64,000 nt of DNA from positions 18,335-82,334 of the forward strand of contig CAYFNF010000001.1 in the NCBI GenBank assembly GCA_964344485.1, read 5' to 3'. Below, piece after piece: positions 7,658-56,660 of this stretch (the first letter of the stretch is position 1; each line of letters begins with the position of its first letter). The stretch is from an uncultured Gammaproteobacteria bacterium. GTDB taxonomy: Bacteria; Patescibacteriota; Patescibacteriia; UBA9570; XYC2-FULL-38-9. Both the position numbers and the translations under genes were made by a program. The notes beneath the pieces are model-generated. The model saw only the letters and a list, made by a program, of their open reading frames with translations, was not told where the DNA came from and searched no databases.

Positions 7658-7814
7658 AATTTGTCTAATATTAGCGAAATAATTGTAAAAACAACCCATC
7701 GCAGGTTGATTTTTTATCTTTTTTTTGATATATATTGATGCGGCAAATCGCACGCAGTGCGGTTTTGTCGTCAGAAGGAGTGGATGCGCAAAATGCAGAT
7801 GAGGAGGCAGAACC

Positions 7815-8300
7815 ATGCCACGTAGCGCAACACAGGAAACCCATGGTGTAGTCCCCGTCGTCCCACGTCGCGGGACACCCCCGTCCGACCACGAGGTCGC
7901 GGCGTTCACCCTGGCCAGCAAGCCGGAGACGGTTCCGCTGATCATCCGGAACGTGGTCCAGTACGGTACGGGCGCCACGCCCGTGACCAACACGGACATC
8001 CACCGCCTGCGCCGCGCCGGGCTCGCCCGTCGCAACCGCATGGGCTTCAAGGTGGTCCGGGTCTCGGACACGGTGTTCGACGTTCTGGTCTTCGGCTGTT
8101 CCGCCAAGGGGCGGGGCTGGACCCGCAGGCAGGTCGACGAGTGGGCTCGCAACATGCAGGAGGTCCTGCACGCGATCGCGGACTTCACCGCGGTACGCGA
8201 TGTTCGCATCGAAGACTGGGACCGCACGGTTCAGGTCCCGGGCCGCGGGATGCGGCTCTACACCGTCGCCACCAGCAAGATCACCATCAGGGTCTCCTGA
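7815..8300 (+). CDS. Hypothetical protein encoded by a high-GC (foreign-looking) island
   Basis: Strong SD GAGGAGG 7 nt upstream of the ATG. GC by eye ~65-70% versus ~43% in the flanks. A GC-rich hairpin plus T8 terminator lies immediately downstream. The overlapping minus-strand ORFs look like high-GC artefacts. Confidence 0.5.
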   Translation: MPRSATQETHGVVPVVPRRGTPPSDHEVAAFTLASKPETVPLIIRNVVQYGTGATPVTNTDIHRLRRAGLARRNRMGFKVVRVSDTVFDVLVFGCSAKGRGWTRRQVDEWARNMQEVLHAIADFTAVRDVRIEDWDRTVQVPGRGMRLYTVATSKITIRVS

Positions 8301-8321
8301 CAAGCGCACTTCGCTGACGCA

Positions 8322-8358
8322 CCCCCACGCCACCGCGGCGTGATCAGGGGTTTTTTTT
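8322..8358 (+). terminator. Intrinsic terminator: GC-rich hairpin (ACGCC..GGCGT core) followed by T8
   Basis: Seen directly, downstream of the island gene stop at 8300. Confidence 0.55.
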
Positions 8359-34640: not shown

Positions 34641-34644
34641 TGCT

Positions 34645-36386: not shown

Positions 36387-36388
36387 GC

Positions 36389-37905: not shown

Positions 37906-37916
37906 CGAGCAGGGGC

Positions 37917-40098: not shown

Positions 40099-40099
40099 T

Positions 40100-41116: not shown

Positions 41117-41122
41117 TTGTCA

Positions 41123-41151
41123 TTGACATAACCGGTAAATACACGTACTCT
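41123..41151 (+). promoter_or_regulatory. Sigma70-like promoter TTGACA-N17-TACTCT with a very short leader upstream of xseB
   Basis: Read directly; the -10 ends ~10 nt before the ATG at 41162. Confidence 0.4.
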
Positions 41152-41161
41152 AGTATTAAAT

Positions 41162-41407
41162 ATGGCTAAAAAACAGGGAAAAAAACGAACAACTGCTGGA
41201 GCAAAGTCATCCAAGACGTTTGCAAACCGCTTTGAAGAGTTGGAAAAGATTGTTGAGTCTTTTGACTCCGAAGAGCTGGATGTAGATGCAAGCGTTAAGC
41301 AATTCGAAAAGGGCTTGAAGCTTGCAGAAGAGTTAAAAGAAACATTAGAATCCGTAGAGAATAAGATTGAAACTCTGAAGAAGAAATATCACGTGGAGGA
41401 AGAATAA
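41162..41407 (+). CDS. xseB: Exodeoxyribonuclease VII small subunit
   Basis: 81 aa; FEELEKIVESF..FEKGLKLAEEL matches the XseB helical core. Confidence 0.75.
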   Translation: MAKKQGKKRTTAGAKSSKTFANRFEELEKIVESFDSEELDVDASVKQFEKGLKLAEELKETLESVENKIETLKKKYHVEEE

Positions 41408-41421
41408 GTAACAACACCCCC

Positions 41422-42270: not shown

Positions 42271-43543
42271 GGAGTATAAGAAAATTGTTATTACCGGCAC
42301 CAAAGGCAAGACCACGATTGTCCGGTTGCTTGATCATGTGCTACTGGAGCTAGGGTTCCACACGTTGAGAGTGGATACTGACGGGCACTTTAAGGACGGA
42401 AAGCAACGTAGTTCTTATGAAGAGTCGCGAAAGTATTGGGGTATGGTGCCGAACGTCTGCCCAGGACGTTACCTCTATGATTTGGAGGGATTGCCAGTGA
42501 ATAGAACTGTAGTATTGCTAGAAGCAGCAATTGGATCCTCTTCATTGCGTGGTCTCGGGTATTCGTATCATCAAATTGGGGTGTTTACGAATGTATTTGA
42601 GGATCATATTACAAAGGTGCGAATCAAGAATAGAAAAGACATTTACGACGCAAAACGGTTTGCATTTACACGACTCAGAAAGGACGGGCAGTTTATTTAC
42701 AATTCCAGTGATTCGTTTTTGGCAAAACAGTTACAGCAAGAAATCATTGGCCGTCGAATGATAGCAGTAGGGGAGGAATTGAAATATGTACAACCGCAGT
42801 CGTTCTTTAAAGGCGGCAATGTTCATTTTTTAATTGAAGGATCACGCATTTTCTACATGACTGCAAAAACAAAGCGACTGCTCGTAGACACTGCTACTAT
42901 TCCATTGTCGTTTAACGGAATGTTTGTACCGAATAACTACAACATCGCGTTCGCATTAGGAGTGTTGTATGCGCATTTTGGGTCTACACAGTTCTTTAGA
43001 AAATTACATAAAATTCGAGCAGCGTTAGAATCTTATACGTTGGACACTGCCGGTGGAAGACTGTTGTTATTACAGTCCAAGAATAAAGACCTGTCTGTAT
43101 TAATTGATTTTGCGCATGAAGCGCGATCATTACGGGAAGTGGGTAAACTGGCAAAGAAGCTGAGTAGCAACAGAGTCATTGGAGTATTACGGCTCGATCC
43201 ATCTCGAACAAACAAGGAGATTCAGCAAGCTGCACGTGCAATCAAAACTGCGTATGATGAGATTATTATCTACGATAAGGTAGACGGCGTACAGCAAAAA
43301 AAGAGCAGAACTGTTGCCGAGGGGAAGCGCAGAACCGTTGGTCAGACCGCGCGTCTATTTGTACGAGAGCTAAAGCGTGCAGGGCACAAGAATGTGCAAA
43401 TGGAGTTACGCGAGCAACGTGCATTTAACAGCGCAGTACAGCAAGCCGAACCCGGAGACGTAATAGTGTATATTGGTCGCGGAGAGGATCACAGGAAAAC
43501 GTACGATGTTGTTAAGAAGAAGCTTAGGAGCATTCGATCATGA
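42260..43543 (+). CDS. Mur-ligase-family amide ligase (CphA M-domain / PgsB-like), stand-alone
   Basis: ITGTKGKTT P-loop of the Mur-ligase central domain at the N-terminus; overlaps the upstream gene. Confidence 0.6.
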   Translation: MIDEEYKKIVITGTKGKTTIVRLLDHVLLELGFHTLRVDTDGHFKDGKQRSSYEESRKYWGMVPNVCPGRYLYDLEGLPVNRTVVLLEAAIGSSSLRGLGYSYHQIGVFTNVFEDHITKVRIKNRKDIYDAKRFAFTRLRKDGQFIYNSSDSFLAKQLQQEIIGRRMIAVGEELKYVQPQSFFKGGNVHFLIEGSRIFYMTAKTKRLLVDTATIPLSFNGMFVPNNYNIAFALGVLYAHFGSTQFFRKLHKIRAALESYTLDTAGGRLLLLQSKNKDLSVLIDFAHEARSLREVGKLAKKLSSNRVIGVLRLDPSRTNKEIQQAARAIKTAYDEIIIYDKVDGVQQKKSRTVAEGKRRTVGQTARLFVRELKRAGHKNVQMELREQRAFNSAVQQAEPGDVIVYIGRGEDHRKTYDVVKKKLRSIRS

Positions 43544-44499
43544 TAAAAGCTTGCGTACTCATCGGACTAGGCTGTGGACGCCGAAATCATCCCTTCGTAA
43601 AAGGGAGTATTTATGAAGGAGCGTATAGAGTATTATCACAACAAGCTGAGGAGCAGGGGGTGCAGTTCTATCGATGCAAGAATAAATCATTTAGTTTTAC
43701 AACTGGCCGTTTTTCTAGTGGATGGACATTGAGAAATAATAAATGGGTTCGTGTGAAAAATATTAAACCAGATGTGTTACTGGATAAATCAACAGCTATT
43801 TATCGGTCCGAGACGTTTCGTCATAAAGTGAGGATGTCAACCTATGCGCCAATCGTGAATTCGTTAGACTTTACTATGCTATTTGGAAGTAAGATGTTTA
43901 CGTACACAATATTCAGTAAGTTTATGAAAAAAAGCATTCGCGTAACGAATGCGTCAGAATTGCGGGATGCGGCGAAACAGTTAAAGACCAATCGTATAGT
44001 GGTAAAGCCGGTGTACGGGTCTTCTGGAAAGGATATTTCAATAGTGACTAAGGATAAAATTCGCACTGTCCAAATTAATCGCCCCATGATCGCACAGGAG
44101 TTTATCGATAGTTCAAAAGGCATTAAGGGGCTGACAGATACTGTTCATGATCTTCGTTTAGTATTTGAAAGTGATTCATTCATTTATAGTTATATCCGTA
44201 CGCCAGTGAAAGGCTCGCTATTAGCAAATGTCGCCCAAGGAGGATCTATGAAGATAGTGACTAAGAAAGAGATGCCGAAAAAAGTATGGGATATCATTAA
44301 GGAAGTTCATGCGTCATTACGACCGTATTTTCCAGGTATCTATACTATAGATCTTATGTTTGATAAACAGCAGCAACCATGGATCGTCGAGTTAAATACC
44401 ATGCCGGGTATCTATTTTTATGAGGATCAAAAGAAATGGCAAGATCGGTTTTATGCAGCACAGATAAAGATATTAAAGAATGCAGTAAATAAGAGATAG
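43540..44499 (+). CDS. ATP-grasp protein (YheC/YheD- or TTL-like), paralog 1
   Basis: IVVKPVYGSSGKDISIV and LANVAQGGS motifs. Confidence 0.45.
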   Translation: MIKACVLIGLGCGRRNHPFVKGSIYEGAYRVLSQQAEEQGVQFYRCKNKSFSFTTGRFSSGWTLRNNKWVRVKNIKPDVLLDKSTAIYRSETFRHKVRMSTYAPIVNSLDFTMLFGSKMFTYTIFSKFMKKSIRVTNASELRDAAKQLKTNRIVVKPVYGSSGKDISIVTKDKIRTVQINRPMIAQEFIDSSKGIKGLTDTVHDLRLVFESDSFIYSYIRTPVKGSLLANVAQGGSMKIVTKKEMPKKVWDIIKEVHASLRPYFPGIYTIDLMFDKQQQPWIVELNTMPGIYFYEDQKKWQDRFYAAQIKILKNAVNKR

Positions 44500-44500
44500 A

Positions 44501-45451
44501 ATGAAAGAACAAATCATCGGGTTTATTTATAACGATTCGGATTGGGAGCGGACTGTACCGTTTCAAAAGCCCGCGATGCGGGAGTCATATGAGCGCATGT
44601 ACGATCGCGCGGTACAGAAATACGGCATGCGGATCTACCGTATGAGTAAGGAATGGTATAAGGACGGCGCGTTTCATCGTGCATGGACATGGAAAGACGG
44701 GAAATGGATAAAAGTGCGACAACGCATCAAGGCAGACATCTACTATGACAAGATGTCCACTACGTATCAAAGCATGTCTTTTCAGCAGCAGTTCTATCAA
44801 GAGAATCGCGTGGTGAATGCGCCAGAGTTTGATTTAGTTGCTTCAGATAAGTTATTAACCTATCTTGCGTGCGGTGATATCATGACCAAGACCTACGTTG
44901 TGAACTCTACAGTTGATTTAAAGAATGCACTTGCGAAGATATCAACAAAGAAAGCAGTATTGAAACCACGGCTTGGGTATGGGGGCGCTGGTATTCAGAT
45001 AACTAGCAAAGCACAGTTACTAAAGAAGCGAGTCTCTGGGAGCTATATAGTGCAACCGTATGTCGACACATCAGGTGGCGTGCCAGGGTTGTTTAAGGGA
45101 ACGCATGATTTTCGGGTGATATTAGCAAACGATAAGCCAGTCATGGCGTATATCCGCACTCCAGCGCCAGGTACTGAGTTGTGCAACATCTCTTTAGGAG
45201 GAGGGATCTGTTTTGTGCCAGTATCTAAGATGCCAAAGACAGTAAAGCCATTACTACGGAGAATGTCAGAAGCGTTTGCGGTCTTTCCGCAGAAGTTTTA
45301 CGGAGCAGATTTTTACTTTCAGAACGGTAAACCACAGTTAGTAGAGATAAATACTAAACCGAACATGGTCTATTTCTTGGATAACTTACAGCAAGAGGCC
45401 AAGATGCACGACAACGTACTGTCATATATGCAGTCAATTATTCAATCATGA
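44501..45451 (+). CDS. ATP-grasp protein (YheC/YheD- or TTL-like), paralog 2
   Basis: Paralog of 43540..44499 (VLKPRLGYGGAGIQIT, NISLGGG). Confidence 0.45.
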   Translation: MKEQIIGFIYNDSDWERTVPFQKPAMRESYERMYDRAVQKYGMRIYRMSKEWYKDGAFHRAWTWKDGKWIKVRQRIKADIYYDKMSTTYQSMSFQQQFYQENRVVNAPEFDLVASDKLLTYLACGDIMTKTYVVNSTVDLKNALAKISTKKAVLKPRLGYGGAGIQITSKAQLLKKRVSGSYIVQPYVDTSGGVPGLFKGTHDFRVILANDKPVMAYIRTPAPGTELCNISLGGGICFVPVSKMPKTVKPLLRRMSEAFAVFPQKFYGADFYFQNGKPQLVEINTKPNMVYFLDNLQQEAKMHDNVLSYMQSIIQS

Positions 45452-46275
45452 GAAAGTTTTTCGCATTCATTGTTGGTTTCATAGTGAGTTTCATCTGCTG
45501 CTGTATTGTGTTTATGATTGCGGTATATATTACTGCTCCATCGCACTATAATGTGCTGTTTGTTGGGTCTGATCAACGCGAGAATGAGCGAGCACGATCT
45601 GATGTCCTATTTGTGGTGTCGCTTCCAAAAAGCGGCGATGAACAGCCGTTCTTTTTAACTATCCCGCGTGATACTAAGATTGAACACGATGAATGGGGAT
45701 TGCAGAAGATTACGCACTTCTACGCGCTTGGTGAGCGGCCAGACGATGGAAAGCTACTTGGTAATATTGACTTAGTAGAAAGCGTGGTGGAAGAGCTACT
45801 CGACATCAAGATCCATGCGACCGCAGAGGTAACGTTTACCAGTTTTGAAGAGATTATAGATGAGCTGGGTGGCGCTGTTCTAGATGGACAGGTGATCTCT
45901 GGCCAAGAAGCGCTTGATGTGGTGCGTGATCGTTTTACCGAAGGTCGATCGGATTTCGACCGGCAAGCAGATGCGCGAGAGATCCTTCGTTCATTGATGA
46001 CAAAAGTGAAGAGTCCTTCTACTGTAAAAACAGTACTGCAGTACTTTAATGATGCGACGTATGCACGCGTGGACTACGGCAAGATGAAAGCAGTCCACTT
46101 TTTAATCGGAGCTGGCATCTCTCGTAAAGGAGATGTGAGAATCGGGGAGATGGAGGAAGAAGCGTTGCCAGGGCAGAGTGACCGGATCTACACTCCGGCA
46201 TTCGGCAAAGAACTGTACTACTGGGTCCCCGACCAAGAAGCGTTAGAAGAGATTATTGATAATCACTTTAAATAA
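45448..46275 (+). CDS. LytR-CpsA-Psr (LCP) family polymer-to-peptidoglycan transferase
   Basis: N-terminal TM anchor, RSDVLFVVS and IPRDT motifs. Confidence 0.7.
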   Translation: MRKFFAFIVGFIVSFICCCIVFMIAVYITAPSHYNVLFVGSDQRENERARSDVLFVVSLPKSGDEQPFFLTIPRDTKIEHDEWGLQKITHFYALGERPDDGKLLGNIDLVESVVEELLDIKIHATAEVTFTSFEEIIDELGGAVLDGQVISGQEALDVVRDRFTEGRSDFDRQADAREILRSLMTKVKSPSTVKTVLQYFNDATYARVDYGKMKAVHFLIGAGISRKGDVRIGEMEEEALPGQSDRIYTPAFGKELYYWVPDQEALEEIIDNHFK

Positions 46276-47036
46276 TGTTTTCCGCCTCCCCATTCAAGTT
46301 ACGCATGTTTGAGACCTGCCCTCGGCAGTACAAGTTTACGTATGTTGATGACTTGGCAAAAGAGTATAAAAAGCCTAAGCCGTACTTGACCATGGGGGCG
46401 CACGTGCATAATGCGTTGAAGGATTTCTATGAACAGTTAGATCTAGAGAGCCGCACGTATGAGGAGCTAGAAAAAATTCTGCGCCGACGATGGACCGAGA
46501 ATAGGAAGGGATTCAGTGACAAGGATGATGAAGCAAAGTGGGGCACCAAGGCACTGAACATGTTGCGGCTGTTTGTGCATCGCATGGATGTCTCTGTTGA
46601 CCCAGCCATGCTCGAAGACTACTACGATGTGGAGCTAGATGAGAGCTTGAAGTTAATTGGACGTATTGACCGTGCGGATGAGTTAGAAGACGGTTCACTC
46701 CATGTGATTGATTATAAAACTGGAAAGTTTGATCCGGAGGACGTCTCTGACCTGCAGTTGATCTTGTATGCGTTAATTGTCTCTGCGAATCAGAAGAAGC
46801 CGGTGACCAAGGCGAGTTATTTATATCTGCAGACCTGGGACTGGCATACGATTGATGTAGGGCAAGACGAAGCCGAGCATGCAGTAGAGATGGTGAAAGA
46901 ACAGGTAGAGAAGATCAAGCAAGAGAGCGAGTTTGCTCCACAAGTGAACAAGTACTGCAAGAACTGTGATTACTTAAGTATCTGCCCAGCTAAGGATCAA
47001 GTAGAAATTGGAATCAGCTCAGAAGAATCAGAGTAA
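46275..47036 (+). CDS. PD-(D/E)XK nuclease (Cas4/RecB-like, with Fe-S Cys cluster)
   Basis: IDRADE...VIDYKTGK nuclease core; one N-terminal Cys (ETCPRQ) plus C-terminal CKNCDYLSIC. Confidence 0.6.
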   Translation: MFSASPFKLRMFETCPRQYKFTYVDDLAKEYKKPKPYLTMGAHVHNALKDFYEQLDLESRTYEELEKILRRRWTENRKGFSDKDDEAKWGTKALNMLRLFVHRMDVSVDPAMLEDYYDVELDESLKLIGRIDRADELEDGSLHVIDYKTGKFDPEDVSDLQLILYALIVSANQKKPVTKASYLYLQTWDWHTIDVGQDEAEHAVEMVKEQVEKIKQESEFAPQVNKYCKNCDYLSICPAKDQVEIGISSEESE

Positions 47037-48780: not shown

Positions 48781-49584
48781 ATGGATAGCATGACAGATAA
48801 AAGAATCGTTTTCGATATAGAGACCAAGAAGACGTTTGATGAAGTCGGGGGGCATGAGAATCAGGCAGAGCTAGGCGTATCGTATGTTGGTGTGTATTCC
48901 TATACACAACAGAAGCCGTTCGGCTTTTTTGAGAATGATTTGGATAAACTAGAGAAGATACTGCAAACAGAGAAACCTATGTTGATTGGGTTTAACTCTA
49001 TACATTTTGACGTGCCTGTGTTACAGCCGTACTTTAAAAATTTTGATCTGACCACATTGCCACATTTGGATATGTTAAAGGAGATAGAGAAGAGTTTGGG
49101 GCATCGAGTGAAGCTAGATAGTGTTGCAGACGCAACGTTATATGAAGGGAAGTCCGGCTCGGGACTAGATGCGATTCGATGGTTCCGTGAAGGAGACTTT
49201 GAGTCGCTGGTCAAGTACTGCATGGATGATGTGCGCATTACCAGAGATCTCTATGAATATGGACTTCGGCATGGGCGGATATTCTATCCAACTGGCGGTG
49301 AGTATAAACCGATTGATATTGGTTGGGGTGAGCACCCGACTATTCGGGAGCAGCTAGAAGAGGCGTTCAAGAAGCACGTGCAAATTGATATCGAGTATTT
49401 TGATGTGGATCAGGATCGTAGTAAAGAGAATGTGGCACGCACTATTGAGATTTTGTCATTTGACGGAGAGCATTTTGATGCGTTCTGCCATCACTCGAAC
49501 GACAAAAAGCGATACCACCTCTCTCGAGTGTGGGAGATAAAAGATACTGGCGATACTTTTGCGCACCAAGGGTCGCTGTTCTAG
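48781..49584 (+). CDS. DEDDy-type 3'-5' exonuclease (PolA/PolB-exo-like)
   Basis: Exo I (IVFDIE), Exo II (FNSIHFDVPVL) and Exo III (YCMDDVRITRDLY) motifs. Confidence 0.6.
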   Translation: MDSMTDKRIVFDIETKKTFDEVGGHENQAELGVSYVGVYSYTQQKPFGFFENDLDKLEKILQTEKPMLIGFNSIHFDVPVLQPYFKNFDLTTLPHLDMLKEIEKSLGHRVKLDSVADATLYEGKSGSGLDAIRWFREGDFESLVKYCMDDVRITRDLYEYGLRHGRIFYPTGGEYKPIDIGWGEHPTIREQLEEAFKKHVQIDIEYFDVDQDRSKENVARTIEILSFDGEHFDAFCHHSNDKKRYHLSRVWEIKDTGDTFAHQGSLF

Positions 49585-49865
49585 AGCAAGGTCATTACAT
49601 TTGCTGCTATACGAAGACGCTGAAATAGCGTTTTTTTGGTTGTAGCTTGAGGAAGCGCTGGAGTTACCGCTGGTTTTTTCTTTTGCGCAATAGAGAGGTT
49701 GTTCGTTACTACGCGAATACTGGGGCCAAATAACTCAATGAGCACCTTTTCAGGCATGCGTTGAAGTTGTCCTGCAGTGTGAATATCTAAATCATGGAGT
49801 ACTTGTGCGGTACGTACACCGATTCCAGGGAGAAATTGTACAGGAGTGTTTGATGCAAACGACAT
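49581..49865 (-). pseudogene. Remnant of a Y-family DNA polymerase (DinB/UmuC thumb-HhH region only)
   Basis: FLPGIGVRTAQVLHDLDIHTAGQL is the Y-family HhH/thumb signature. Only 94 aa; no palm or fingers domains anywhere nearby. Located immediately downstream of lexA. Confidence 0.45.
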
Positions 49866-50508: not shown

Positions 50509-50544
50509 ATATTTCAGGGTTAATAGTGATTATATACACCGTAC

Positions 50545-50600
50545 CCGAACAAAACCCGAATGTCAAATATCACCTGTGGATAACCGAATAAAACCCGAAT
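50545..50600. promoter_or_regulatory. Two copies of a GAAC/GAAT-N7-GAAT direct-repeat motif (CCGAAyAAAACCCGAAT) upstream of lexA; candidate LexA operator
   Basis: Read directly. It resembles, in reverse complement, the alphaproteobacterial GTTC-N7-GTTC LexA box. Confidence 0.3.
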
Positions 50601-50799
50601 AAGTATTGACTTCCGTGCAGTTGCGTAATAACGTGACAGTCTGAGAAATCAGATTAGGTCCAACAATTTGTATCCTCTTCTCCACTATAGCTGAAAGTAG
50701 AAGTGCGTAACTCCTATTTTCAACTGTATTGGATGGACGGAACAACGAGAATGGCCCAAGAACGGACGGGCCAGTGACGCCTCGGAGGAGGGCGACAAC

Positions 50800-51249
50800 A
50801 TGATTGTGAGACCGAGTGACGAGTACGTGGGAGACGCCTACGTCTTCCAGGTGGACGGGCAGTGGTTCGAGGCCCTGCCGTTCGTCAAGCCGGACGACAA
50901 GGGTCCGGACGACCGCCAGAGCGTGGACGGCCGCACCATGCTGGAGCGCGTGCCCGTGAGCGATGCCCAGGGCACCAAGGCGCAGGGCCAGCTGTGCATG
51001 GAGCACCAGCTCGACATGAGCGTGCTCACGCACAAGCCGCTGGGCCAGCGCGGGATGACCGTGACCGGTGTCGTGCACCTGGTGTTCGCGAACTGGGAGG
51101 CACAGCCCATCGTGGACGGGCTCACCGAGCTGTTCTACGACGCCGGGCAGTGGAGGCCGGGCAGCATGAGTCTGGGTAGCCAGTTCTTCGCGCACCACCG
51201 AGTGGTCCGCCCCTGCGACCCGCCGCCCGAGGCCGGTGACGCGAGCTGA
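50800..51249 (+). CDS. Hypothetical protein, high-GC island gene
   Basis: SD GGAGGAGG 8 nt upstream; abrupt GC increase at ~50740. The minus-strand ORF 50563..51198 crosses the GC boundary and is rejected. Confidence 0.4.
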   Translation: MIVRPSDEYVGDAYVFQVDGQWFEALPFVKPDDKGPDDRQSVDGRTMLERVPVSDAQGTKAQGQLCMEHQLDMSVLTHKPLGQRGMTVTGVVHLVFANWEAQPIVDGLTELFYDAGQWRPGSMSLGSQFFAHHRVVRPCDPPPEAGDAS

Positions 51250-51486
51250 GGCACTGGACCTCTTTTTTTATTTTCATACTTTGTAGGATATGTTTCTAAG
51301 CGCTTAACAGCACAGAAAAAGCTGAAAAATCGCATTAATGTAATCTTCGTCATTTCTTTAAAAAAAGAGCGGTTTTTCTATTGACAACATATGCACAGAA
51401 ATGTCTTGACATATACTATTCCTCTACTACTATGGGTATCACGCACGCAGATCCTCTGGACATGGAGGTGGAAGGGAGTGTGCATT

Positions 51487-52890
51487 ATGTCGAAAACCGC
51501 GTTGGTTTTCGGAGGTGTTGGCTTGGTGGGCGGAGAGGTCATCCGCCTGCTGGCCAGTCAGTTCAACCTGAGCATCGTGGTCTGCGATCGCAGGCCACCC
51601 GAGGAGGAGATCGACGGCGTGGTCTACGTGACCGGTGACCACGTCAACGTGTTCAGTCGTTCGTTCGTGGACGACATGATCGCGCAGCACGCCCCGGCCC
51701 TGATCGTGGACGCGGTCAACATCGCGAGCATCGCGAGCCGGAGCGGCGACCTGGAACAGATGGTCCGCGCCTACTGCTTCAACGTGATTCGGCCCACGAT
51801 CCGGCGTGGCATCACATGGATCGACATCGGCACGGTCGCGACCGGCGGCCTGGGCCTCGAGATCCCGTACACCCACAACGAGGAGTCCGACGGTGGGATC
51901 GCCCCCGGGCTGATCCTCAAGAACGAGGCGGCCGAGATCCACGGCGGGTTCCTGGACCTGTTCGGTCGTACACCCGGCATGCGCGTGGGACGCGTGATCC
52001 CCAGGGGCATGATCGGCTTCGAGACGCCGACGTTCGGCGCCATGACCGTGGCGCACCTGAACGGCACCCCGACGCGCTACCGCAGCATCCGCGTGGACGT
52101 GGCCGACGCGCAGGCCGTGACGTTCGTGCCCCTGGGCGAGTACCAGGACGTGGGTGTCCGGTGCGGTGAGAACGGCCAGTTCGGGGTCGAGGAGACCATC
52201 GCGATCACCGCGATCGGCCAGATGGAATCCGTGACCGCGCAGGCCGTGGCCCGTGGGTGCGGCCGTGTCTACGGCTGTCTGCTCTCGGGTGCCGGCGAGT
52301 ACGTGCAGTGCAACATCGACCCGGACCTGACGTCCTTCGCCGCGCGCAACCGCGTGATCAAGCGCATGAACGACCTGTCCGGTCGGCACCGCGTGCACAG
52401 CATCGCGTTCGGCAACCTGGGCCCGTACATCACGTGCGACCTGTGGGAGCTCCACGTGCTGGCGCGTCACGGCTTCACGCCGCAGAACCTGGCCGAGTTC
52501 GAGGGCGCGGTCCTGTGGCAGGACGAAGTCATCGAGGAGATGGCCACCTGGCTCCCGGGCCTGGGCATTCCCATCGCCATGGACGGGCATCTGTACCCCG
52601 CGTTCCAGGGCGAGGTCGAGCTGAGCCGCGACGACGTGGCCGAGCAGATCCAGGCCGTGACCACGGGCAACGAGCCCAAGCTGTGGTACGTGGACCTGCG
52701 CACCGAGCGCGTGCTCCACTGGGCCAGGATCGCGAGACAGATCCAGCAGGCCGATCCGGAGGACTACCCCCGGAGCCACCTGCCGCTTTCCGCGGGCAAG
52801 CTGGTCCGCCCCGGTTCCTTCTGGGCCGCGTACCAGACCGTGACCGGGCACAGCCGCAACGCGTACAGCGAAGGCGCGCGCTACGTCTAG
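51487..52890 (+). CDS. NAD(P)-binding Rossmann-fold protein (saccharopine-dehydrogenase-like N-terminus), high-GC island gene
   Basis: ALVFGGVGLVGGEV GxGxxG at the N-terminus; SD GGAGGTGGAAGGGAG upstream; AT-rich spacer with TTGACA boxes upstream; hairpin plus T7 terminator at 52924-52956. Confidence 0.5.
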   Translation: MSKTALVFGGVGLVGGEVIRLLASQFNLSIVVCDRRPPEEEIDGVVYVTGDHVNVFSRSFVDDMIAQHAPALIVDAVNIASIASRSGDLEQMVRAYCFNVIRPTIRRGITWIDIGTVATGGLGLEIPYTHNEESDGGIAPGLILKNEAAEIHGGFLDLFGRTPGMRVGRVIPRGMIGFETPTFGAMTVAHLNGTPTRYRSIRVDVADAQAVTFVPLGEYQDVGVRCGENGQFGVEETIAITAIGQMESVTAQAVARGCGRVYGCLLSGAGEYVQCNIDPDLTSFAARNRVIKRMNDLSGRHRVHSIAFGNLGPYITCDLWELHVLARHGFTPQNLAEFEGAVLWQDEVIEEMATWLPGLGIPIAMDGHLYPAFQGEVELSRDDVAEQIQAVTTGNEPKLWYVDLRTERVLHWARIARQIQQADPEDYPRSHLPLSAGKLVRPGSFWAAYQTVTGHSRNAYSEGARYV

Positions 52891-52923
52891 GCAGGACACG
52901 TCCTGCACGGGCGTGACCAACAA

Positions 52924-52956
52924 CCTCATGGGATGAGGAGCCTACGAGGTTTTTTT
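52924..52956 (+). terminator. Intrinsic terminator CCTCAT-GGG-ATGAGG followed by T7
   Basis: Read directly, downstream of the island gene stop. Confidence 0.5.
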
Positions 52957-53072
52957 AATTCCGTAATATTTCGCTCTGAATAGCGAAAAAATGCGGTTTC
53001 CGCAGCTTTAGCACGCAAAAAGTAGCAATTACTGCGACGCAGGGAAAGCGTGATTTTCCACCTGTAGAACTT

Positions 53073-53101
53073 GACATTTCAAGCTTTTTTTTATACGATT
53101 G
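53073..53101 (+). promoter_or_regulatory. Promoter-like TTGACA-N17-TACGAT in the AT-rich spacer ahead of a high-GC gene; a 7-bp hairpin ACTCGCC..GGCGAGT lies in the leader
   Basis: Read directly. Confidence 0.35.
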
Positions 53102-53188
53102 GTTACTCGCCCTGGAATAATGGCGAGTCCAAACTGGGGAACGATCAACGTATCGACGATAGTATATTCCACCAGACGGGAGAAGGTA

Positions 53189-53604
53189 TGCTGGCACCTG
53201 ACGCAGCAGACCACGTCCGACAAAGCGCATTCATGCGCTACCTGAGCCGCCTCATGATGCTGCGCGGCATCGGGGCGTCGGACCTCACCGATCGACTGAT
53301 GGTGGCCGATGACGGCCCCACGGTCCAACGCGCAGCGCAAGACCAGCTCTTGCTCAAGTCCACGACAGCGCTTCCGCGAGACGTGGTGCGCAGCCTGCCG
53401 GCCGAGGAGCACATCCAGGACATGCTCGACAACGCCGAGCTTCTGGAGGCCATCCACGACCTGGCGCAGGCAGCAGCACGCAGTGCGGTACAGGCAACTG
53501 GACACGACGTGGACTGGGTCCAGATCCTGAACGTGGACCTGGCGACGAGCTTCGCGGTCGCGCGGCGACTGTTCGGTGATGCCCGCATGGAGGGCAGAGC
53601 CTGA
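53189..53604 (+). CDS. Hypothetical small protein (possible regulator), high-GC island gene
   Basis: SD GGGAGAAGG before the ATG at 53189; high GC. Confidence 0.35.
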
Positions 53605-53681
53605 CCTGATCGGACGGTCAACTGCAACCCACACCTGAGGCCGAAGAGAGAGACGACCATCAGGCTTTTTTATACCCAAAT

Positions 53682-53708
53682 AAAAAAAGCGGCACGAAGC
53701 CGCTTTTA
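53682..53708. terminator. Bidirectional intrinsic terminator GCGGC-ACGAA-GCCGC between an A7 and a T4 run
   Basis: Perfect 5-bp GC stem flanked by A and T runs. Confidence 0.6.
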
Positions 53709-53718
53709 TGTATATCAC

Positions 53719-54198
53719 TTATTCAGTACAGCCGTCAGTATCGATACAGTTATCAATGATATGTACCATGTCAGTTGTATAGTCGTCTTTCCACTTGTCT
53801 AGATTATCTGCCTCTCCATAGATACCGAGGTCAATTAAGTTTTCTTCGCGATCATTTTCCACTGTATCTCTCATGTCGTTTACTTTGTTCTCTGCAATTT
53901 CTTCTGCGCGTTCATCAACATGAACATTGAACTGCCCCTCGTCAAAATATGCTGAAGGACCGAGTACAGCGTCAGGATTTGTTTCTAGATATTCTTTTAT
54001 TTGTTCATCTACAAGTGCATTTAGTTTAGCTTTATTTATGCCCGTGCCAGCATAAGATTGTTGTGACATCATGAAGAATGCTGCCGCACTTCCTCCAACT
54101 AAAATCACTGCGGCTGCAACCGCGACACCGATTTTAGTTTTAGTTCGTGTTACCGTGGTGGTTTGTTCCATGTTTTTATGGTTACGTATTTGTTTCAA
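53719..54198 (-). CDS. Membrane-anchored hypothetical protein (host-like composition)
   Basis: N-terminal TM helix; acidic C-terminal domain. Confidence 0.4.
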   Translation of the reverse strand: MKQIRNHKNMEQTTTVTRTKTKIGVAVAAAVILVGGSAAAFFMMSQQSYAGTGINKAKLNALVDEQIKEYLETNPDAVLGPSAYFDEGQFNVHVDERAEEIAENKVNDMRDTVENDREENLIDLGIYGEADNLDKWKDDYTTDMVHIIDNCIDTDGCTE

Positions 54199-54347
54199 TT
54201 ATATACCTTTGAGCATAGAATACAAATGCGACTGGCTACATTGTTGATAACTGTTTATTAGTTATTCGAATAAAAAAAAGAGGTGCGTGCTCCTCCGGCA
54301 ATCAAACCTCTAGCCCCTGTGCAACGGGCTTGGGTCTACGCCGTGGA

Positions 54348-55679
54348 TCAGCTGTCCTCGGACCCGCTGTCCTGCAGGTAGGTGCGCTCGACGTAGAAGA
54401 AGCGCGACACCGCGATGTAGGCCAGGGCCATGACGACCATGAAGGCCGCGAAGAACAGGTAGTACGTCGGACCGCTCATGTTCGTCAGCGTCTCGCTGGA
54501 GCTGATGACCCAGTTCACCGCGGCGGTGAACAGGTTGCCCAGCGCGATTGCGACGCAGAACAGTCCGAAGACCAGGCTCTTCAGCTTGGGCGGTGCCTGG
54601 GTGTAGAAGAACTCCAGGGCGGTGCCGTAGGTCAGCGTTTCGCCGATGGACAGGATCAGCCAGGCGAGCATCTGCCACTTGAGGTTGAGCACCACGTCGG
54701 CGTCCAGCTGCGACTGGATCCAGGCCGCGAGCACGAACGAGCCGGCCGCGAAGAACAGGCCGGTGCCGATCTTGCGGATCGCGGTGAACTCCACGACGTG
54801 GTTGATCCACTTGTAGACCCAGCGGTTGAAGACGAACACCAGCACGATGATCATCACCGGGTTCACCATCGGGACCTGCGCCGGGAGCCACTTGAAGCCC
54901 AGGAAGTGCAGGTCCATCTCCTTGGCCTGCAGCACCCAGCGCGACGCGCCCTGGTCGTAGAGGCTGAAGAACCCCGTGATGAAGACGAGCAGCATGGAGA
55001 TGCGTGCCAGCACCACGAGGGTCTCGCGGGTGAAGACCTCGCGGCGGAAGGACGGCCAGTCCGGCGGGGTGTGGTTGTAGTGGTGCCGCCCCAGCCAGAA
55101 GATGAAGATGGCCACGAGCATCAGCACCGCCGGGATGCCGAACGCCACGCGCGGACCGAACCACTCCAGCATGAACGGGCTGATCACCGAGGAGAGGAAC
55201 CCCCCGGCCTGGATGCCCATGTAGAAGTAGCTGATGCCCTTGTCCAGCAGGCTGGCGTTCTCCTTGCTGTACAGGTCGCCGACCATGGCGACCATGCAGG
55301 GCTTGATGCCGCCCGAGCCGAGCGCGATCAGGCCCAGGCCCAGGTACAGGCCGAGCCGCGTCTGGTCCATCGCCAGGACGATGCAGCCCGCGGCGTAGAC
55401 CAGGGAGAGGCTGAGCACGGTCTTGTATTTCCCGATCAGCAGGTCCGCCAGGAAGCTGCCCAGCAGCGGGCAGAAGTAGTTGGCGAACGCGAACAGGTGG
55501 AACACCACCGCGGACTCTTCCTCGCTCATGGGTGAGAGCACACCGGCCCGGTTCACGATGTAGTCGGTCATGTAGACCACGAGGATCGACCTCATCGCGT
55601 AGTAGGTGTAGCGCTCTGCTGCTTCGTTGCCGACCAGGAACTTCAGTCCCGGCGGCATTCTCGTTTTGTTGGTTGTCAT
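54348..55679 (-). CDS. POT/PTR2-family proton-dependent di/tripeptide transporter, high-GC island gene
   Basis: GGIKPC, FYMGIQAGGF and a 12-14 TM layout typical of DtpT-like POT transporters. SD GGAGAG upstream (minus strand). GC by eye ~65%. Confidence 0.75.
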   Translation of the reverse strand: MTTNKTRMPPGLKFLVGNEAAERYTYYAMRSILVVYMTDYIVNRAGVLSPMSEEESAVVFHLFAFANYFCPLLGSFLADLLIGKYKTVLSLSLVYAAGCIVLAMDQTRLGLYLGLGLIALGSGGIKPCMVAMVGDLYSKENASLLDKGISYFYMGIQAGGFLSSVISPFMLEWFGPRVAFGIPAVLMLVAIFIFWLGRHHYNHTPPDWPSFRREVFTRETLVVLARISMLLVFITGFFSLYDQGASRWVLQAKEMDLHFLGFKWLPAQVPMVNPVMIIVLVFVFNRWVYKWINHVVEFTAIRKIGTGLFFAAGSFVLAAWIQSQLDADVVLNLKWQMLAWLILSIGETLTYGTALEFFYTQAPPKLKSLVFGLFCVAIALGNLFTAAVNWVISSSETLTNMSGPTYYLFFAAFMVVMALAYIAVSRFFYVERTYLQDSGSEDS

Positions 55680-55876
55680 CCCAACTCTCCTTTCCCTTGT
55701 GATTCACGTATCTGCACGTAATCACCGGACGTGGGGTGTAGAACGTTGTTGCTTTCCTCCGAAGCAAGTCCTTATCAAGGAACTCACTGCTAGAAAGCAG
55801 CTTGCACAGGCAGTCATTGAAGCAGAATTCGAGCTAATCCGTCAAGTTTTTACTAGTAAAATGATTAATATAAAAT

Positions 55877-55897
55877 CCCCGGAGAAATCCGGGGATT
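55877..55897 (-). terminator. Intrinsic terminator CCCCGGA-GAAA-TCCGGGG followed by a T-rich tract on the minus strand (downstream of the M23 gene)
   Basis: Perfect 7-bp stem with a GAAA tetraloop. Confidence 0.6.
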
Positions 55898-55901
55898 GAA
55901 G

Positions 55902-56399
55902 TTATGGTAGTGTGACAAATTGTAAAGGATTCACGAAGTGCTTTTTTTTCTTAATCATGAAGTGTAGATGTGGTCCAGTGCTTCTATACGATCCTTTGGT
56001 ACCTGGCTTGCCACCGCTCAAAGCAATAAGTTGTCCAGCAGTAACTCTATCGCCTTTTTTTACATAGACTTTGTTGAGTTGCGCGTAGACAGATTTGTAT
56101 TTCTTATTGTGCTTGATGACAATACGTGCAGGCCGTTTTTTATGACGCTTCTTTGGCTTGTTCACCTTAATCACTTTCCCATCTGCTGCTGCATACACTT
56201 CACTTTTTTGTGGAATTGCTAGGTCGATCCCTTTATGATTACGAAAAGGGTATCCGATCATGAAGCCAAATGGTTGAGTGAGAAAAGCTTCTTCTTGAAT
56301 GGGCGCCTCCCATTCAATCGCTGCGTCTGCGTGATTCGGTAGAATCACAATTGATAGAACGAATAGTGCTACGAATAACACTAATGGTTTTTTTAACAT
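55902..56399 (-). CDS. M23-family metallopeptidase (LytM-like)
   Basis: Signal peptide; HKGIDLAIP ... GPHLHF motifs. Confidence 0.8.
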   Translation of the reverse strand: MLKKPLVLFVALFVLSIVILPNHADAAIEWEAPIQEEAFLTQPFGFMIGYPFRNHKGIDLAIPQKSEVYAAADGKVIKVNKPKKRHKKRPARIVIKHNKKYKSVYAQLNKVYVKKGDRVTAGQLIALSGGKPGTKGSYRSTGPHLHFMIKKKKHFVNPLQFVTLP

Positions 56400-56625
56400 A
56401 TAAGATGTTAATGGATTAGTTAGATTGTCAAAGTGCGAAACGCATCATGATACGCAGTGAACAAGGCTAGCATAGATAGCTAAAACCGCAACACTAGAAT
56501 TATGTGGATAATCAGAACAAGATTACCCTTGTATTTACTATGTCACTGGTCGATTTTGGAAAAAAGGGCTCGGATCAGAAAGGGTGTTTTTTTTCGTTTC
56601 AATGAGCGTATACTTGAAAGCGACC

Positions 56626-56654
56626 TTGCAAAAAAGCAAAAAAAATGGTAAAAT
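56626..56654 (+). promoter_or_regulatory. Promoter TTGCAA-N17-TAAAAT with a TGn extended -10, giving a leaderless mRNA for the S8 protease
   Basis: The -10 ends 6 nt before the ATG at 56661; no SD. Confidence 0.5.
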
Positions 56655-56660
56655 GCTTGT

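Follow-up and report, generated by a model that had tools for sequence, protein, structure and literature searches.

Atypical GC content and codon usage are said to mark foreign genes, as formulated in the amelioration model of Lawrence and Ochman. For Patescibacteria, hundreds of individually transferred genes have been reported: the streamlined CPR genomes gain transporters and metabolic enzymes through the insertion of single genes foreign in composition, most of the gene traffic runs between Patescibacteria, and the donors are often unrecovered (mSystems 2025, PMC12455944). The DNA analyzed here, a stretch of 64 kb denoted as the window, probably stems from an ultra-small bacterium of the Patescibacteria/CPR type and likewise harbors single genes of foreign composition, including transporter and enzyme types. 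Compared with the reported islands, the contrast is extreme (GC3 0.8-0.96 vs 0.43) and can be followed for each gene individually, with AT-rich spacers in between, Shine-Dalgarno sequences (SDs) precede five of five GC-rich genes vs 2 of 51 host genes, no donor is identifiable, and the family of one of these genes (ORF2) is GC-rich across many recipients. We consider it fairly probable that the genes were acquired one by one from GC-rich bacteria, each being domesticated as a monocistronic cassette in a low-GC chromosome. The five genes are neither one operon nor traceable to one demonstrable donor.

Five separate GC-rich genes (ORF1, ORF2, ORF3, a POT gene, and the gene at 7815-8300, denoted as cassettes A to E) lie in the AT-rich background of the window. 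The first four are all located inside a variable interval between lexA and an S8 protease gene, where two host-type genes are interleaved with them, and cassette E is found ~43 kb from the others:

7801..8358, plus strand: cassette E, outside the span of the preliminary description of this DNA; SD GAGGAGG at 7801-7807
7815-8300, plus strand: cassette E coding sequence, 161-aa ORFan, GC 0.673, GC3 0.858
8321-8351, plus strand: hairpin at the cassette E 3' end (z -2.3), with a T8 run at 8351-8358
50509..50799: divergent lexA-ORF1 spacer, GC 0.44
50542-50561 and 50581-50600: direct repeats in this spacer
from ~50735: GC-rich leader of ORF1, SD GGAGGAGGG at 50784-50792
50800..51249, plus strand: cassette A coding sequence (ORF1, 149 aa), GC 0.68, GC3 0.91, ORFan
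51248..51269, plus strand: cassette A 3' end, 4-5 bp hairpin (-4.4 kcal/mol, z 0.06), T7 run at 51263-51269
51406-51433, plus strand: cassette B promoter-like site, TTGACA, 16-nt spacer, TACTAT
51464-51478, plus strand: SD region GGAGGTGGAAGGGAG in the GC-richer leader of cassette B
51487..52890, plus strand: cassette B coding sequence (ORF2, 467 aa), GC 0.675, GC3 0.92
52894..52956, plus strand: cassette B 3' UTR, a predicted intrinsic terminator, hairpins 52894-52918 and 52922-52951 (-25.7 kcal/mol, z -3.3), T7 run at 52950-52956
53071-53099, plus strand: cassette C promoter-like site, TTGACA, 17-nt spacer, TACGAT
within 53071..53186, plus strand: 80-nt leader of cassette C, SD GGGAGAAGG at 53178-53186
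53188..53604, plus strand: cassette C coding sequence (ORF3, 138 aa), GC 0.657, GC3 0.78, ORFan
53634..53707: cassette C 3' end, weak hairpin 53634-53664, T6 run at 53666-53671
53685-53707: strong palindromic bidirectional terminator, common to ORF3 and the convergent host gene
53719..54198, minus strand: interleaved host-type gene (159 aa, N-terminal TM segment), GC 0.40, GC3 0.33, no SD
54272..54343, minus strand: cassette D 3' UTR, GC-rich hairpins (-27.5 kcal/mol, z -2.0), T8 run at 54279-54272
54348..55679, minus strand: cassette D coding sequence, POT/PTR2 proton-coupled peptide transporter (443 aa), GC 0.633, GC3 0.957
55685..55845, minus strand: cassette D leader of ~115-150 nt, SD AAAGGAGAG at 55693-55685, -35-like TTGACGG at 55845-55839
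55897-55874: strong terminator of the M23 gene's own
55902..56399, minus strand: host-type M23 peptidase gene, GC 0.41, closing the variable lexA-S8 interval

The preliminary description had drawn attention to ORF1-3 as an anomaly ending at 53715. This observation is confirmed and larger than reported, with the POT gene (minus strand) following after one host-type gene and a further cassette at 7815-8300 on the plus strand; the coordinates given for ORF1 and ORF2 hold, and the start of ORF3 moves from 53189 to 53188. That ORF1-3 are far GC-richer than the host is borne out by computation (GC 0.66-0.68 vs 0.44 and GC3 0.78-0.92 vs 0.43, z 7-10). ORF1, ORF2, and ORF3 show a GC of 0.680, 0.675, and 0.657 and a GC3 of 0.913, 0.919, and 0.784, vs a GC of 0.442±0.023 (maximum 0.517) and a GC3 of 0.426±0.050 (maximum 0.563) in the 51 host genes of the window, corresponding to z scores of 9.4-10.5 (GC) and 7.2-10.0 (GC3). 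For all five cassettes the scores are 8.4-10.5 and 7.2-10.7, respectively, and the spacers between them are AT-rich (GC 0.38-0.48). The codon usage, rightly described as foreign and GC3-rich, is of the bacterial high-GC type (CTG, CGC, GGC, ATC, GCC~GCG, and CCG preferred), with no CpG avoidance in the GC-rich genes. It is alike in ORF1 and ORF2 and differs in ORF3, which has a GC3 of 0.78 and uses GCA and CGA. The cassette proteins contain few lysines and many arginines; lysine makes up 0.7-2.7% of the ORF1-3 proteins vs 4.7-14.5% of the 13 host-type proteins measured (6.3-14.5% in 12 of them, one falling below). The plus-strand frames of ORF1-3 follow the coding-type order GC3>GC1>GC2. Antisense and alternative ORFs over them display an atypical position pattern and yield 0 Pfam matches. 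The classification of all five cassettes as compositionally foreign genes is supported.

The succession of promoter, ribosome-binding site, coding sequence, and terminator looks designed, the window proteins have no exact match in the public collection, and the related contigs L006 and L007 terminate inside or beside a GC-rich gene. An assembly or binning chimera, or engineered codon-optimised genes with synthetic parts, could be suspected from this, but such an artefact or human construct is scarcely credible. A chimera is very unlikely, since all ten composition junctions coincide precisely with gene/UTR (expression-signal) boundaries, host-type genes are interleaved, and a like architecture surrounds ORF2 homologs in at least ten independent public assemblies from different projects and assemblers. 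An engineered insertion is also very unlikely: blastn of 50509-56660 against 72,556 plasmids returned no match, tblastn of ORF1 and ORF3 against a phage collection gave 0 matches, and natural homologs of like layout are present in public metagenomes. The cassette proteins are no known markers or reporters, and the products of ORF1, ORF3, and 7815-8300 belong to no recognised family.

Strong SDs, mostly missing in the host, had been noted beforehand, and this is confirmed: four of the five cassettes carry a 6-nt SD and ORF3 a GGAG, vs SDs of at least 5 nt in 2/51 host genes. The coupling of SDs with GC-rich genes recurs at six other loci. Other expression signals proposed earlier are retained in part. 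TTGACA-type promoter-like sites are found in the AT-rich spacers upstream of ORF2 and ORF3, and the scan, modestly above chance (6 sites vs 2.8±1.6 in shuffles), gave no convincing site upstream of ORF1. A T6-T8 run closes all cassettes at the GC-to-AT switch; the hairpin said to accompany it is strong at ORF2 (z -3.3), POT (z -2.0), and 7815-8300 (z -2.3) and weak at ORF1 (z 0.06) and ORF3 (z -0.6). Every cassette is monocistronic in layout, consisting of an AT-rich spacer, an SD-bearing leader, a GC-rich coding sequence, and the T-run. The GC-rich segments are roughly transcript-shaped: they set in 50-115 nt ahead of the start codon and stop at the T6-8 run. According to promoter and terminator prediction, each GC-rich gene is a separate transcription unit.

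These predicted units bear on the earlier proposal of one island or small functional unit, i.e. a block transfer of three genes from a high-GC donor, e.g. an Actinobacterium as presumed host of a Saccharibacterial epibiont. ORF1-3 are adjacent and co-oriented, ORF1 and ORF2 agree in codon usage, and the composition of all three proteins is of the high-GC type. However, AT-rich spacers with promoter-like sites and T-run terminators separate the three genes, the codon profile of ORF3 deviates, and ORF1 and ORF3, themselves devoid of homologs, accompany ORF2 homologs in none of 11 other loci. Moreover, host-type genes are interleaved, and the GC-rich set includes the opposite-strand POT gene and a gene 43 kb off. 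No Actinobacterial relative was seen, the closest relatives of ORF2 all residing in lower-GC genomes and none in a GC-rich genome; an Actinobacterial donor is unsupported, as is a Saccharibacterial host. A block transfer is therefore given a low probability, and the overall interpretation of the preliminary description is partly supported.

In the syntenic relatives L010 and L012, the gene order x45448-PDDEXK-RNaseH-IMS-lexA ... S8-Mur is preserved. Their lexA-S8 interval contains an asparaginase and an AI-2E permease gene (in L010 additionally DUF559), all low-GC, and lacks the GC-rich genes of the window; both relatives are distant (LexA 53-59% identical). For the product of 53719-54198, the metagenome scan returned no relatives. 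The absence from syntenic relatives and the GC-to-AT decay in some ORF2 homologs (see below) resemble classical islands and the amelioration model. Unlike a classical island, the set is non-contiguous with host-like intergenic DNA and a fifth unit 43 kb away. The 64-kb window contains no tRNA genes, no integrase domain was found in the lexA-S8 interval genes, and no repeats flank the cassettes or are common to them, the spacers being unique.

Lined up in a variable slot, the unrelated single-gene units, of which many are ORFans, are also reminiscent of integron arrays. A cassette-type mobile system inserting promoterless single genes could be such an array or could operate by retro-transfer of foreign mRNAs, the mobile unit then being bounded by the transcription start and the U-tract of the terminator. 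The transcript-shaped segments, the single-gene units, and the tRNA genes that adjoin ORF2 homologs in two independent contexts agree with this scheme. In contrast to integron arrays, the cassettes have their own promoters and terminators, mixed orientation, and interleaved host genes; attC-like sites and conserved inverted or direct repeats are lacking at their ends, no intI integrase or reverse transcriptase was detected among the ORFs examined in and around the interval, and no recognisable start marks the onset of high GC in the ORF1 leader. A mobile system of this kind is judged improbable.

In line with the earlier statement that two of the three proteins belong to no nameable family, ORF1 and ORF3 have 0 homologs among 5.8 billion proteins. 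The N-terminal ~60 residues of ORF1 weakly resemble one FG-GAP-like repeat, and when 1.84 billion representatives were scanned in full with HMMER, ORF1 gave weak repeat-type matches and nothing else. A single-sequence structure model of ORF3 is all-helical at low confidence (pLDDT 51). Together with the cassette E product, both are predicted to be small cytosolic proteins. Cassette D, judged from its sequence, encodes a member of the proton-coupled peptide transporter family, with matches to PTR2 (PF00854, 1.3e-63) and MFS_1 (5e-23) in Pfam and a TIGR00924 score above the cut-off. Among PDB entries, its closest matches are of the PepTSo and the Xanthomonas PepT type (2xut, 2e-75; 6ei3, 2e-69), and it shares with PepTSo-type POTs the PTR2 domain and the ExxERxxYY motif of TM1, read off the translation as ExxER(Y)xYY at residues 19-27 (E19-A-A-E-R-Y-T-Y-Y27). 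Unlike these, it is shorter (443 vs 514-524 aa) and shows a GC3 of 0.96 in a 44% GC genome. The transporter would import di-/tripeptides by proton symport, an activity that would be useful to an auxotroph.

The Rossmann fold recognized early on in ORF2 is corroborated by the N-terminal GxGxxG motif (GGVGLVGG at residues 9-16; G9, G10, and G12 nearly invariant and G15 invariant in the family alignment) and by Foldseek matches to extended SDRs (E 3e-8, TM just 0.3-0.5). The classical SDR motif YxxxK is not evident among the invariant columns of this alignment, and the match to Epimerase (PF01370, E 0.002) stays under the curated cut-off. PF27054 ('Beta_methylindole_red_C') has precomputed matches in 26/26 ORF2 homologs, and ORF2 itself returned no PF27054 match against the local Pfam copy. 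ORF2 thus appears, from sequence and model fold, to be an extended-SDR-like reductase with PF27054 assigned via its homologs, and it may act as an NAD(P)H-dependent keto or 2-oxo-acid reductase. PF27054 is represented by the Ind2-type beta-methylindolepyruvate reductase of the indolmycin pathway (PMC5925218). Similar to Ind2, the ORF2 homologs carry PF27054 and a weak Epimerase/Rossmann match, and ORF2 has the NAD(P)-binding motif and an extended-SDR-like model fold. Unlike Ind2, ORF2 is only 25-30% identical to family members of GC-rich genomes and has no indolmycin-type context: its homologs elsewhere stand alone or pair with GCS2 and GATase genes, and the window ORF2 is alone.

The closest relatives of ORF2 are 44-56% identical (best hit 54%), and several sit in Patescibacteria-like genomes. 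DNA context is available for 11 close relatives; every one is a GC-rich gene within a genome of lower GC (flanks 0.40-0.50), and none is a donor-like copy in a GC-rich genome. Distant relatives (25-30% identity) occur in genomes of 62% and 72% GC, with matching gene GC. A GC3 of 0.9 implies very recent arrival, and near-identical donor genes would therefore be expected somewhere. Fourfold sites are near saturation between the window ORF2 and every relative, and, unlike in the amelioration model, several family copies hold a GC3 of 0.87-0.92 despite near-saturated fourfold sites. Polarised fourfold changes in the homologs P1 and P3 are GC-to-AT vs reverse 8:0 and 21:0, which points to amelioration in progress. 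The P4 branch (locus L087) shows 7 S-to-S and at most 1 S-to-W changes and no GC decay; P4 has its tRNA and GCS2-GATase synteny and its AT-rich promoter in common with relatives.

Such persistence suits a different reading, in which the cassettes are long-resident and their high GC, then no sign of recent arrival, is actively maintained in situ, with leader, coding sequence, and 3' UTR kept GC-rich and SD-dependent. Candidate forces are RNA-level selection (stability, resistance to AU-specific RNases), GC-biased gene conversion in accessory genes that are often exchanged, or recurrent replacement of alleles, via the conserved tRNA flanks, by others from a GC-rich pool not yet sampled. Besides the 11 of 11 GC-rich relatives and the P4 branch, a block ORF2h-GCS2-GATase shared by L003 and L087 at 59, 66, and 67% amino-acid identity argues for maintenance: the saturated fourfold sites of GATase have a GC4 of 0.33 in both, while ORF2h (0.57 in L003, 0.88 in L087) and GCS2 (0.53 and 0.63) stay higher. 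P1-P4 also have an AT-rich promoter (TTGACAAA...TgGTATAAA) and leader hairpins in common, P1, P2, and P4 are located in one tRNA-Arg/Lys ... tRNA-Phe cluster, and SDs are kept across the whole family in otherwise SD-poor genomes. On the other hand, P1 and P3 are clearly decaying, and therefore a force maintaining GC cannot be general to all hosts; neighbors of ORF2 homologs that are highly expressed, ribosomal genes included, are not GC-rich, the effects of biased gene conversion in bacteria are small by published estimates, and the evidence comes from one family. Maintenance in situ is considered rather unlikely.

Gene-by-gene acquisition is favored by the GC/GC3 outliers, the SD distribution, the absence from syntenic relatives, the decay in P1/P3, and the distant ORF2 relatives in GC-rich genomes. 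Counted against it are the failure to find a donor, the 11/11 close relatives in lower-GC genomes with P4 undecayed, and the lack of an integrase, flanking repeats, or a tRNA at the window insertion. In this process, the recipient would be a chromosome of ~44% GC largely without SDs, and the foreign genes would arrive singly from GC-rich bacteria, four into the lexA-S8 interval and one at 7815-8300, presumably after short DNA fragments had been taken up and had integrated illegitimately at an intergenic site that tolerates insertions. The AT-rich spacer would provide a sigma-70-like promoter and a GC-richer leader of 50-150 nt the strong SD; the coding sequence would retain the GC3-rich codons of the donor and encode its protein, poor in lysine and rich in arginine, and the GC-rich 3' UTR would terminate in a hairpin and/or T-run. 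The strong SD may be retained because GC-rich structured leaders cannot use the SD-independent initiation of the host.

The ORF2 family, GC-rich in 11/11 cases, with partly conserved promoter and synteny, near-saturation, and one undecayed lineage, suggests a wider, tentative idea: AT-rich, SD-poor genomes might keep a second 'expression dialect', comprising a few transcript-shaped, GC3-rich, SD-dependent units, over long evolutionary times, which we regard as doubtful. If true, possible causes are selection acting on the RNA, biased gene conversion among accessory genes that are exchanged, or recurrent replacement out of a GC-rich pool not yet sampled; most speculatively, these genes would be adapted to the translation machinery of a GC-rich partner cell.

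Elsewhere in the window, the gene at 5030-5935 combines an amino-acid composition of the GC type with a host-like GC3, in keeping with an ongoing influx of genes acquired at different times.

GC content in the window changes gene by gene. In a 300-bp sliding window, it rises from ~0.40-0.44 to 0.65-0.71 over 50800-51250, 51500-52900 and 53200-53650, and returns to 0.42-0.46 between these peaks. The underlying plus-strand genes ORF1, ORF2 and ORF3 lie 7-10 standard deviations from the mean of the other, low-GC genes of the window, here called host genes (n=51; mean GC 0.442±0.023, GC3 0.426±0.050, highest GC3 0.563), which bears out the anomaly reported in the preliminary description. Its coordinates hold for ORF1 and ORF2, while the start of ORF3 moves by one base, from 53189 to 53188. 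Its island of three genes proved too narrow, as two more GC-rich units exist, the second of them 43 kb off:

50800-51249 (+), ORF1, GC 0.680, GC3 0.913
51487-52890 (+), ORF2, GC 0.675, GC3 0.919
53188-53604 (+), ORF3, GC 0.657, GC3 0.784
53719-54198, host-type gene separating ORF3 from the fourth GC-rich gene, GC 0.40
54348-55679 (-), fourth GC-rich gene, coding for a POT transporter, GC 0.633, GC3 0.957
7815-8300 (+), fifth GC-rich unit, coding for 161 aa, GC 0.673, GC3 0.858

Together, the five coding sequences occupy 6.4% of the window, and the spacers show a GC of 0.38-0.48. Long antisense and alternative ORFs are expected in GC-rich DNA. The plus-strand frames of the GC-rich segments display the coding-type order GC3>GC1>GC2, whereas the antisense and alternative ORFs have no Pfam matches and an atypical, non-coding-type GC periodicity. 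At the fifth unit, the antisense ORFs 7671-8333 and 7568-8227 are longer than 7815-8300(+) but probably no genes, the latter being the real one. Codon usage of ORF1, ORF2 and the POT gene is of the bacterial high-GC type without CpG depletion, and that of ORF3 is somewhat different. The proteins of ORF1-ORF3 are lysine-poor (0.7-2.7% K) and arginine-rich, in contrast to the lysine-rich host proteins. Host genes strongly avoid GCC and CCC, which make up 27/471 codons for Ala and 15/212 for Pro and which the cassettes use freely, and favor GGA and CGA. A 301-aa ORF at 5030-5935(-) combines a protein of GC-type composition (1% K, 8.6% R; GC1 0.70, GC2 0.45) with a GC3 of 0.39, like that of host genes; it lacks an SD, belongs to no family, and by its look may be an old, ameliorated acquisition.

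All five units have one build in common: an AT-rich spacer, a leader, a Shine-Dalgarno (SD) sequence, a GC3-rich coding sequence, and a 3' UTR with a T run. The leaders (50-150 nt) have a GC of 0.48-0.63, the next 100 nt upstream 0.30-0.46. The following signals were located:

51406-51433, promoter-like TTGACA-type site upstream of ORF2
53071-53099, promoter-like TTGACA-type site upstream of ORF3
upstream of the POT gene, promoter-like TTGACGG
7801-7807 (+), SD of the fifth unit, and 8351-8358 (+), its T8 run, an architecture like that of the other cassettes

The TTGACA promoters first noted in the spacers were recovered as promoter-like sites for ORF2 and ORF3; upstream of ORF1 the scan gave no convincing promoter-like site, and its total of six sites is only modestly above chance (2.8±1.6 in shuffles). 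The strong SDs were confirmed, with 6-nt matches in four of the five cassettes (AGGAGG, GAGGTG, AAGGAG, AGGAGG) and GGAG in ORF3. They are rare in the host genes, 2/51 of which have a match of at least 5 nt and 16/51 none at all. A proposal that host genes are mostly leaderless is unsupported (TANNNT located 4-10 nt upstream of the start codon in 15/51, against 12 in a control window). The 3' UTRs have a GC of 0.60-0.62 in four cassettes, ORF1 being almost devoid of one, and a T6-T8 run closes the 3' UTR exactly where AT-rich DNA resumes. Of the hairpin terminators described for the three ORFs, the T runs are present throughout; the hairpin is convincing for ORF2 (z -3.3), as it is for the POT gene (z -2.0) and the 7815-8300 gene (z -2.3), but weak for ORF1 (z 0.06) and ORF3 (z -0.6), the latter backed up by a palindromic terminator at 53685-53707. 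The divergent lexA-ORF1 spacer contains a direct repeat, TA(C/A)CCGAA(C/T)AAAACCCGAAT, at 50542-50561 and 50581-50600, which could be an operator, e.g. for LexA, placing ORF1 under SOS control.

Searches for repeated spacers, attC-like sites and shared or flanking direct repeats, the last of which the preliminary description had proposed as a check, yielded chance-level matches only, and tRNA and Rfam scans of the window gave no match. An integron-like or retro-transfer cassette mechanism is very unlikely, with no attC site or repeat found and no integrase among the genes examined near the cassettes. The locus differs in the same way from an integron array (no attC, no intI) and from a classical genomic island, since the cassettes are not contiguous and show no mobility signatures; in its behavior it resembles a group of accessory genes acquired by horizontal transfer.

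Only ORF2 encodes a protein with recognizable relatives among the three original genes. It carries the glycine-rich motif GGVGLVGG and a sub-threshold Epimerase match. PF27054 ('Beta_methylindole_red_C') was found in all 26 of its homologs and was not among the matches of ORF2 itself to the local Pfam copy. An AlphaFold model from 12 sequences is good (pLDDT 84, pTM 0.80) and in Foldseek loosely resembles extended short-chain dehydrogenases, epimerases, and dehydratases (E ~3e-8, TM 0.3-0.5, 10-16% identity); a profile search against PDB sequences returned the same extended-SDR families with weak E-values. The Rossmann fold assigned at the outset is upheld by motif and model, and on motif, homologs, fold and profile matches together the protein is predicted to be a divergent NAD(P)-dependent oxidoreductase of the extended-SDR/PF27054 group. 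The family name derives from Ind2-type reduction of 3-methylindolepyruvate (PMC5925218); no other member of this indolmycin-type pathway is found at the ORF2 locus.

For ORF1 and ORF3, the absence of a nameable family was corroborated: no homolog appeared in a word-indexed search of 5.8 billion proteins, no tblastn match in 50,697 phage genomes, and nothing significant in Pfam, NCBIfam, PADLOC, and PHROGs. Because the latter four gave nothing significant, a defence-system or phage origin is unsupported. HMMER, run with ORF1 over the full set of 1.84 billion representatives, gave three weak matches to repeat proteins, the sole meaningful one relating residues 6-63 to one FG-GAP-like blade ('GSAYIFQ..NGQW'). 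ORF3, modeled without alignment, is predicted with low confidence to be all-helical (pLDDT 51, too low for a fold search). The 7815-8300 protein belongs to no recognized family in Pfam, NCBIfam, and PDB, and the transmembrane protein encoded between ORF3 and the POT gene has no relatives in the metagenome scan. The 54348-55679(-) product is, by its matches, a bona fide POT/PTR2 peptide transporter (Pfam 1.3e-63, TIGR00924 above cut-off, PDB PepTSo 2xut 2e-75). A eukaryotic origin, prompted by a match of the TIGR00926 type and by GC1 and GC2 values like those of the host, was rejected because its codons show no CpG depletion and its best matches in PDB, PepTSo and 6ei3, are bacterial.

Elevated GC recurs among the close relatives of ORF2. 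The DNA context of ten more genes from the close subfamily (L001, L003, L004, L005, L006, L087, L089, L093, L094, L095/96), which are 44-56% identical to ORF2 and at most 76% among themselves, showed a gene GC of 0.51-0.68 and a GC3 of 0.53-0.92 against flanks of 0.40-0.50 at 10/10 loci, from independent projects and assemblers. Among one genome per species (n=185,579), only two ORF2-family loci occur, both on a low-GC background; the sole members residing in GC-rich genomes, of 62% and 72% GC and with a gene GC to match, are distant relatives of 25-30% identity. The SD contrast seen in the window with its 51 host genes is repeated at six loci (L001, L003, L004, L087, L089, L095), where host genes lack SDs, while the ORF2 homolog has one, as do other genes of elevated GC, including GCS2 (L087), HMGL (L001), and some small ORFs. 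A chimera or an engineered insert, both considered initially, is the least credible origin: the same architecture recurs in at least ten independent assemblies, ten composition junctions (about 50735, 51265, 51434, 52955, 53105, 53670, 54275, 55800, 7790 and 8355) coincide exactly with signal boundaries, host genes are interleaved, and no plasmid match was obtained.

The neighborhoods of ORF2 homologs vary. A GCS2-family carboxylate-amine ligase adjoins in three loci, with a class-I GATase/C26-like hydrolase added in two:

L003 8001-11316, ORF2 homolog with GCS2
L087 684-4442, ORF2 homolog with GCS2
L004 3242-5933, ORF2 homolog with GCS2

In both L003 and L087, GC3 decreases from the ORF2 homolog over GCS2 to GATase. 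The module, with or without GATase, hints at a small gamma-glutamyl-type pathway; neither partner is present in the window. ORF1 and ORF3 homologs were never seen near ORF2 homologs in the examined loci. This lack of co-occurrence, the predicted internal promoters and terminators, and the wider set of GC-rich genes contradict one foreign three-gene functional unit, so that its arrival as a block from an Actinobacterium is very unlikely. tRNA genes flank the ORF2 homolog in two independent contexts:

L001 3746-4011 and 6438-6513; L087 214-548 and 2475-2550, tRNA-Arg(TCG), tRNA-Lys(CTT), tRNA-Phe(GAA)
L096 737-809 and 2831-2904, tRNA-Gly(CCC), tRNA-Thr(CGT)

This bracketing may mark an integration/recombination hotspot or be a coincidence. 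Several of these tRNAs decode G-ending codons.

At fourfold-degenerate sites, ORF2 is near saturation against all relatives (identity 0.33-0.45 observed, 0.28-0.41 expected from composition). Within the clade P1-P4 of ORF2 homologs, polarized changes run almost exclusively from GC to AT in P3 (21:0) and P1 (8:0), an amelioration in progress that speaks for an ancestor rich in GC and its decay in AT-rich genomes. P4, the copy at L087, has a GC3 of 0.92, with seven S-to-S changes (S, G/C; W, A/T) and at most one S-to-W; against ORF2, observed and expected fourfold identity are both 0.41 and GC4 is ~0.9 in both. Its tRNA-Arg/Lys ... tRNA-Phe setting is common to L087 and L001, its AT-rich promoter and leader hairpins to P1-P3, and the downstream GCS2-GATase pair is 66% and 67% identical to that of L003, the GATase fourfold sites being saturated with GC4 0.33 in both. 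P4 is either a recent replacement, drawn from an unsampled GC-rich pool with the same AT-rich promoter, or a copy whose GC was kept in place. The undecayed state of P4 in shared synteny is the basis for proposing maintenance of high GC in situ, which as a general explanation is unlikely but deserves consideration.

The interval between lexA and an S8 protease gene, which holds ORF1-ORF3 and the POT gene, was compared among metagenome relatives of LexA (53-66% identity). L010 and L012 keep the order x45448-PDDEXK nuclease-RNaseH-like-IMS fragment-lexA ... S8 protease-Mur ligase and carry asparaginase and AI-2E permease genes in between (plus DUF559 in L010), all low-GC; none of the window's six interval genes occurs there. 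The interval is therefore a variable slot, and the window's content is lineage-specific. Neither the ORF2 nor the LexA protein has an exact match on record in public assemblies. In the closest LexA relative (L007, 66% identity), the contig stops inside a partial gene of GC 0.63 directly beyond lexA-IMS (11145-11457(-)), and in L006, too, the contig ends within the GC-rich ORF2 homolog; genes of this kind may interrupt assemblies. A 94-98 aa ORF that has no more of a Y-family (IMS) polymerase than the HHH/thumb motif directly adjoins lexA in four related genomes:

window 49581-49865 (-), IMS-fragment ORF
L007 10646-10942, IMS-fragment ORF
L010 ~10621-10776, IMS-fragment ORF
L012 8382-8669, IMS-fragment ORF

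The locus is real and natural, and horizontal gene transfer accounts for most of it. Its best reading, which we consider fairly probable, is that a permissive slot took up genes from GC-rich bacteria one by one, since composition, protein make-up, absence from syntenic relatives, and the decay in P1 and P3 fit, as do the ameliorated-looking 5030-5935 gene and the many individually transferred genes reported in Patescibacteria (PMC12455944). Each acquired gene would have been domesticated as its own transcription unit, the recipient supplying the promoter and the donor's SD being kept, as GC-rich leaders might be unable to use the host's SD-independent initiation. The weak point is that no donor was found despite a nearly undecayed GC3.

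Unusual features are the gene-level sharpness, the SDs exclusive to GC-rich genes, and a family-wide high GC without a visible donor. If the transfers are recent, the locus provides a very clean case, found in nature, of one-at-a-time gene domestication in a streamlined bacterium that barely uses SDs, and a variable slot beside lexA is identified. If high GC is actively maintained, GC/codon deviation would be challenged as a clock of transfer age, and an unknown force, either selective or recombinational and specific to certain genes, would be indicated in Patescibacteria. The coupling of SDs to GC-rich genes offers a directly testable handle on CPR translation initiation, and the contrast connects to the anti-SD motif reportedly missing in some CPR bacteria, part of Parcubacteria (PMC9297842).

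The host is probably a Patescibacteria/CPR-type organism, because of its SD-poor genes, its many ATP-grasp, FemAB, and Mur-ligase genes, and the ORF2-homolog contigs, which contain DUF5654 and DUF5671 and one of which is labelled Patescibacteria; the window itself contains neither a marker gene nor an rRNA gene. A long co-oriented cluster at 29079-47036(+), rich in ATP-grasp/RimK-like ligases, FemAB, and Mur-ligase-like proteins and further holding a PKD + 7TM_transglut protein, exonuclease VII, and a PD-(D/E)XK nuclease, may be a cell-envelope or peptide-ligation locus.
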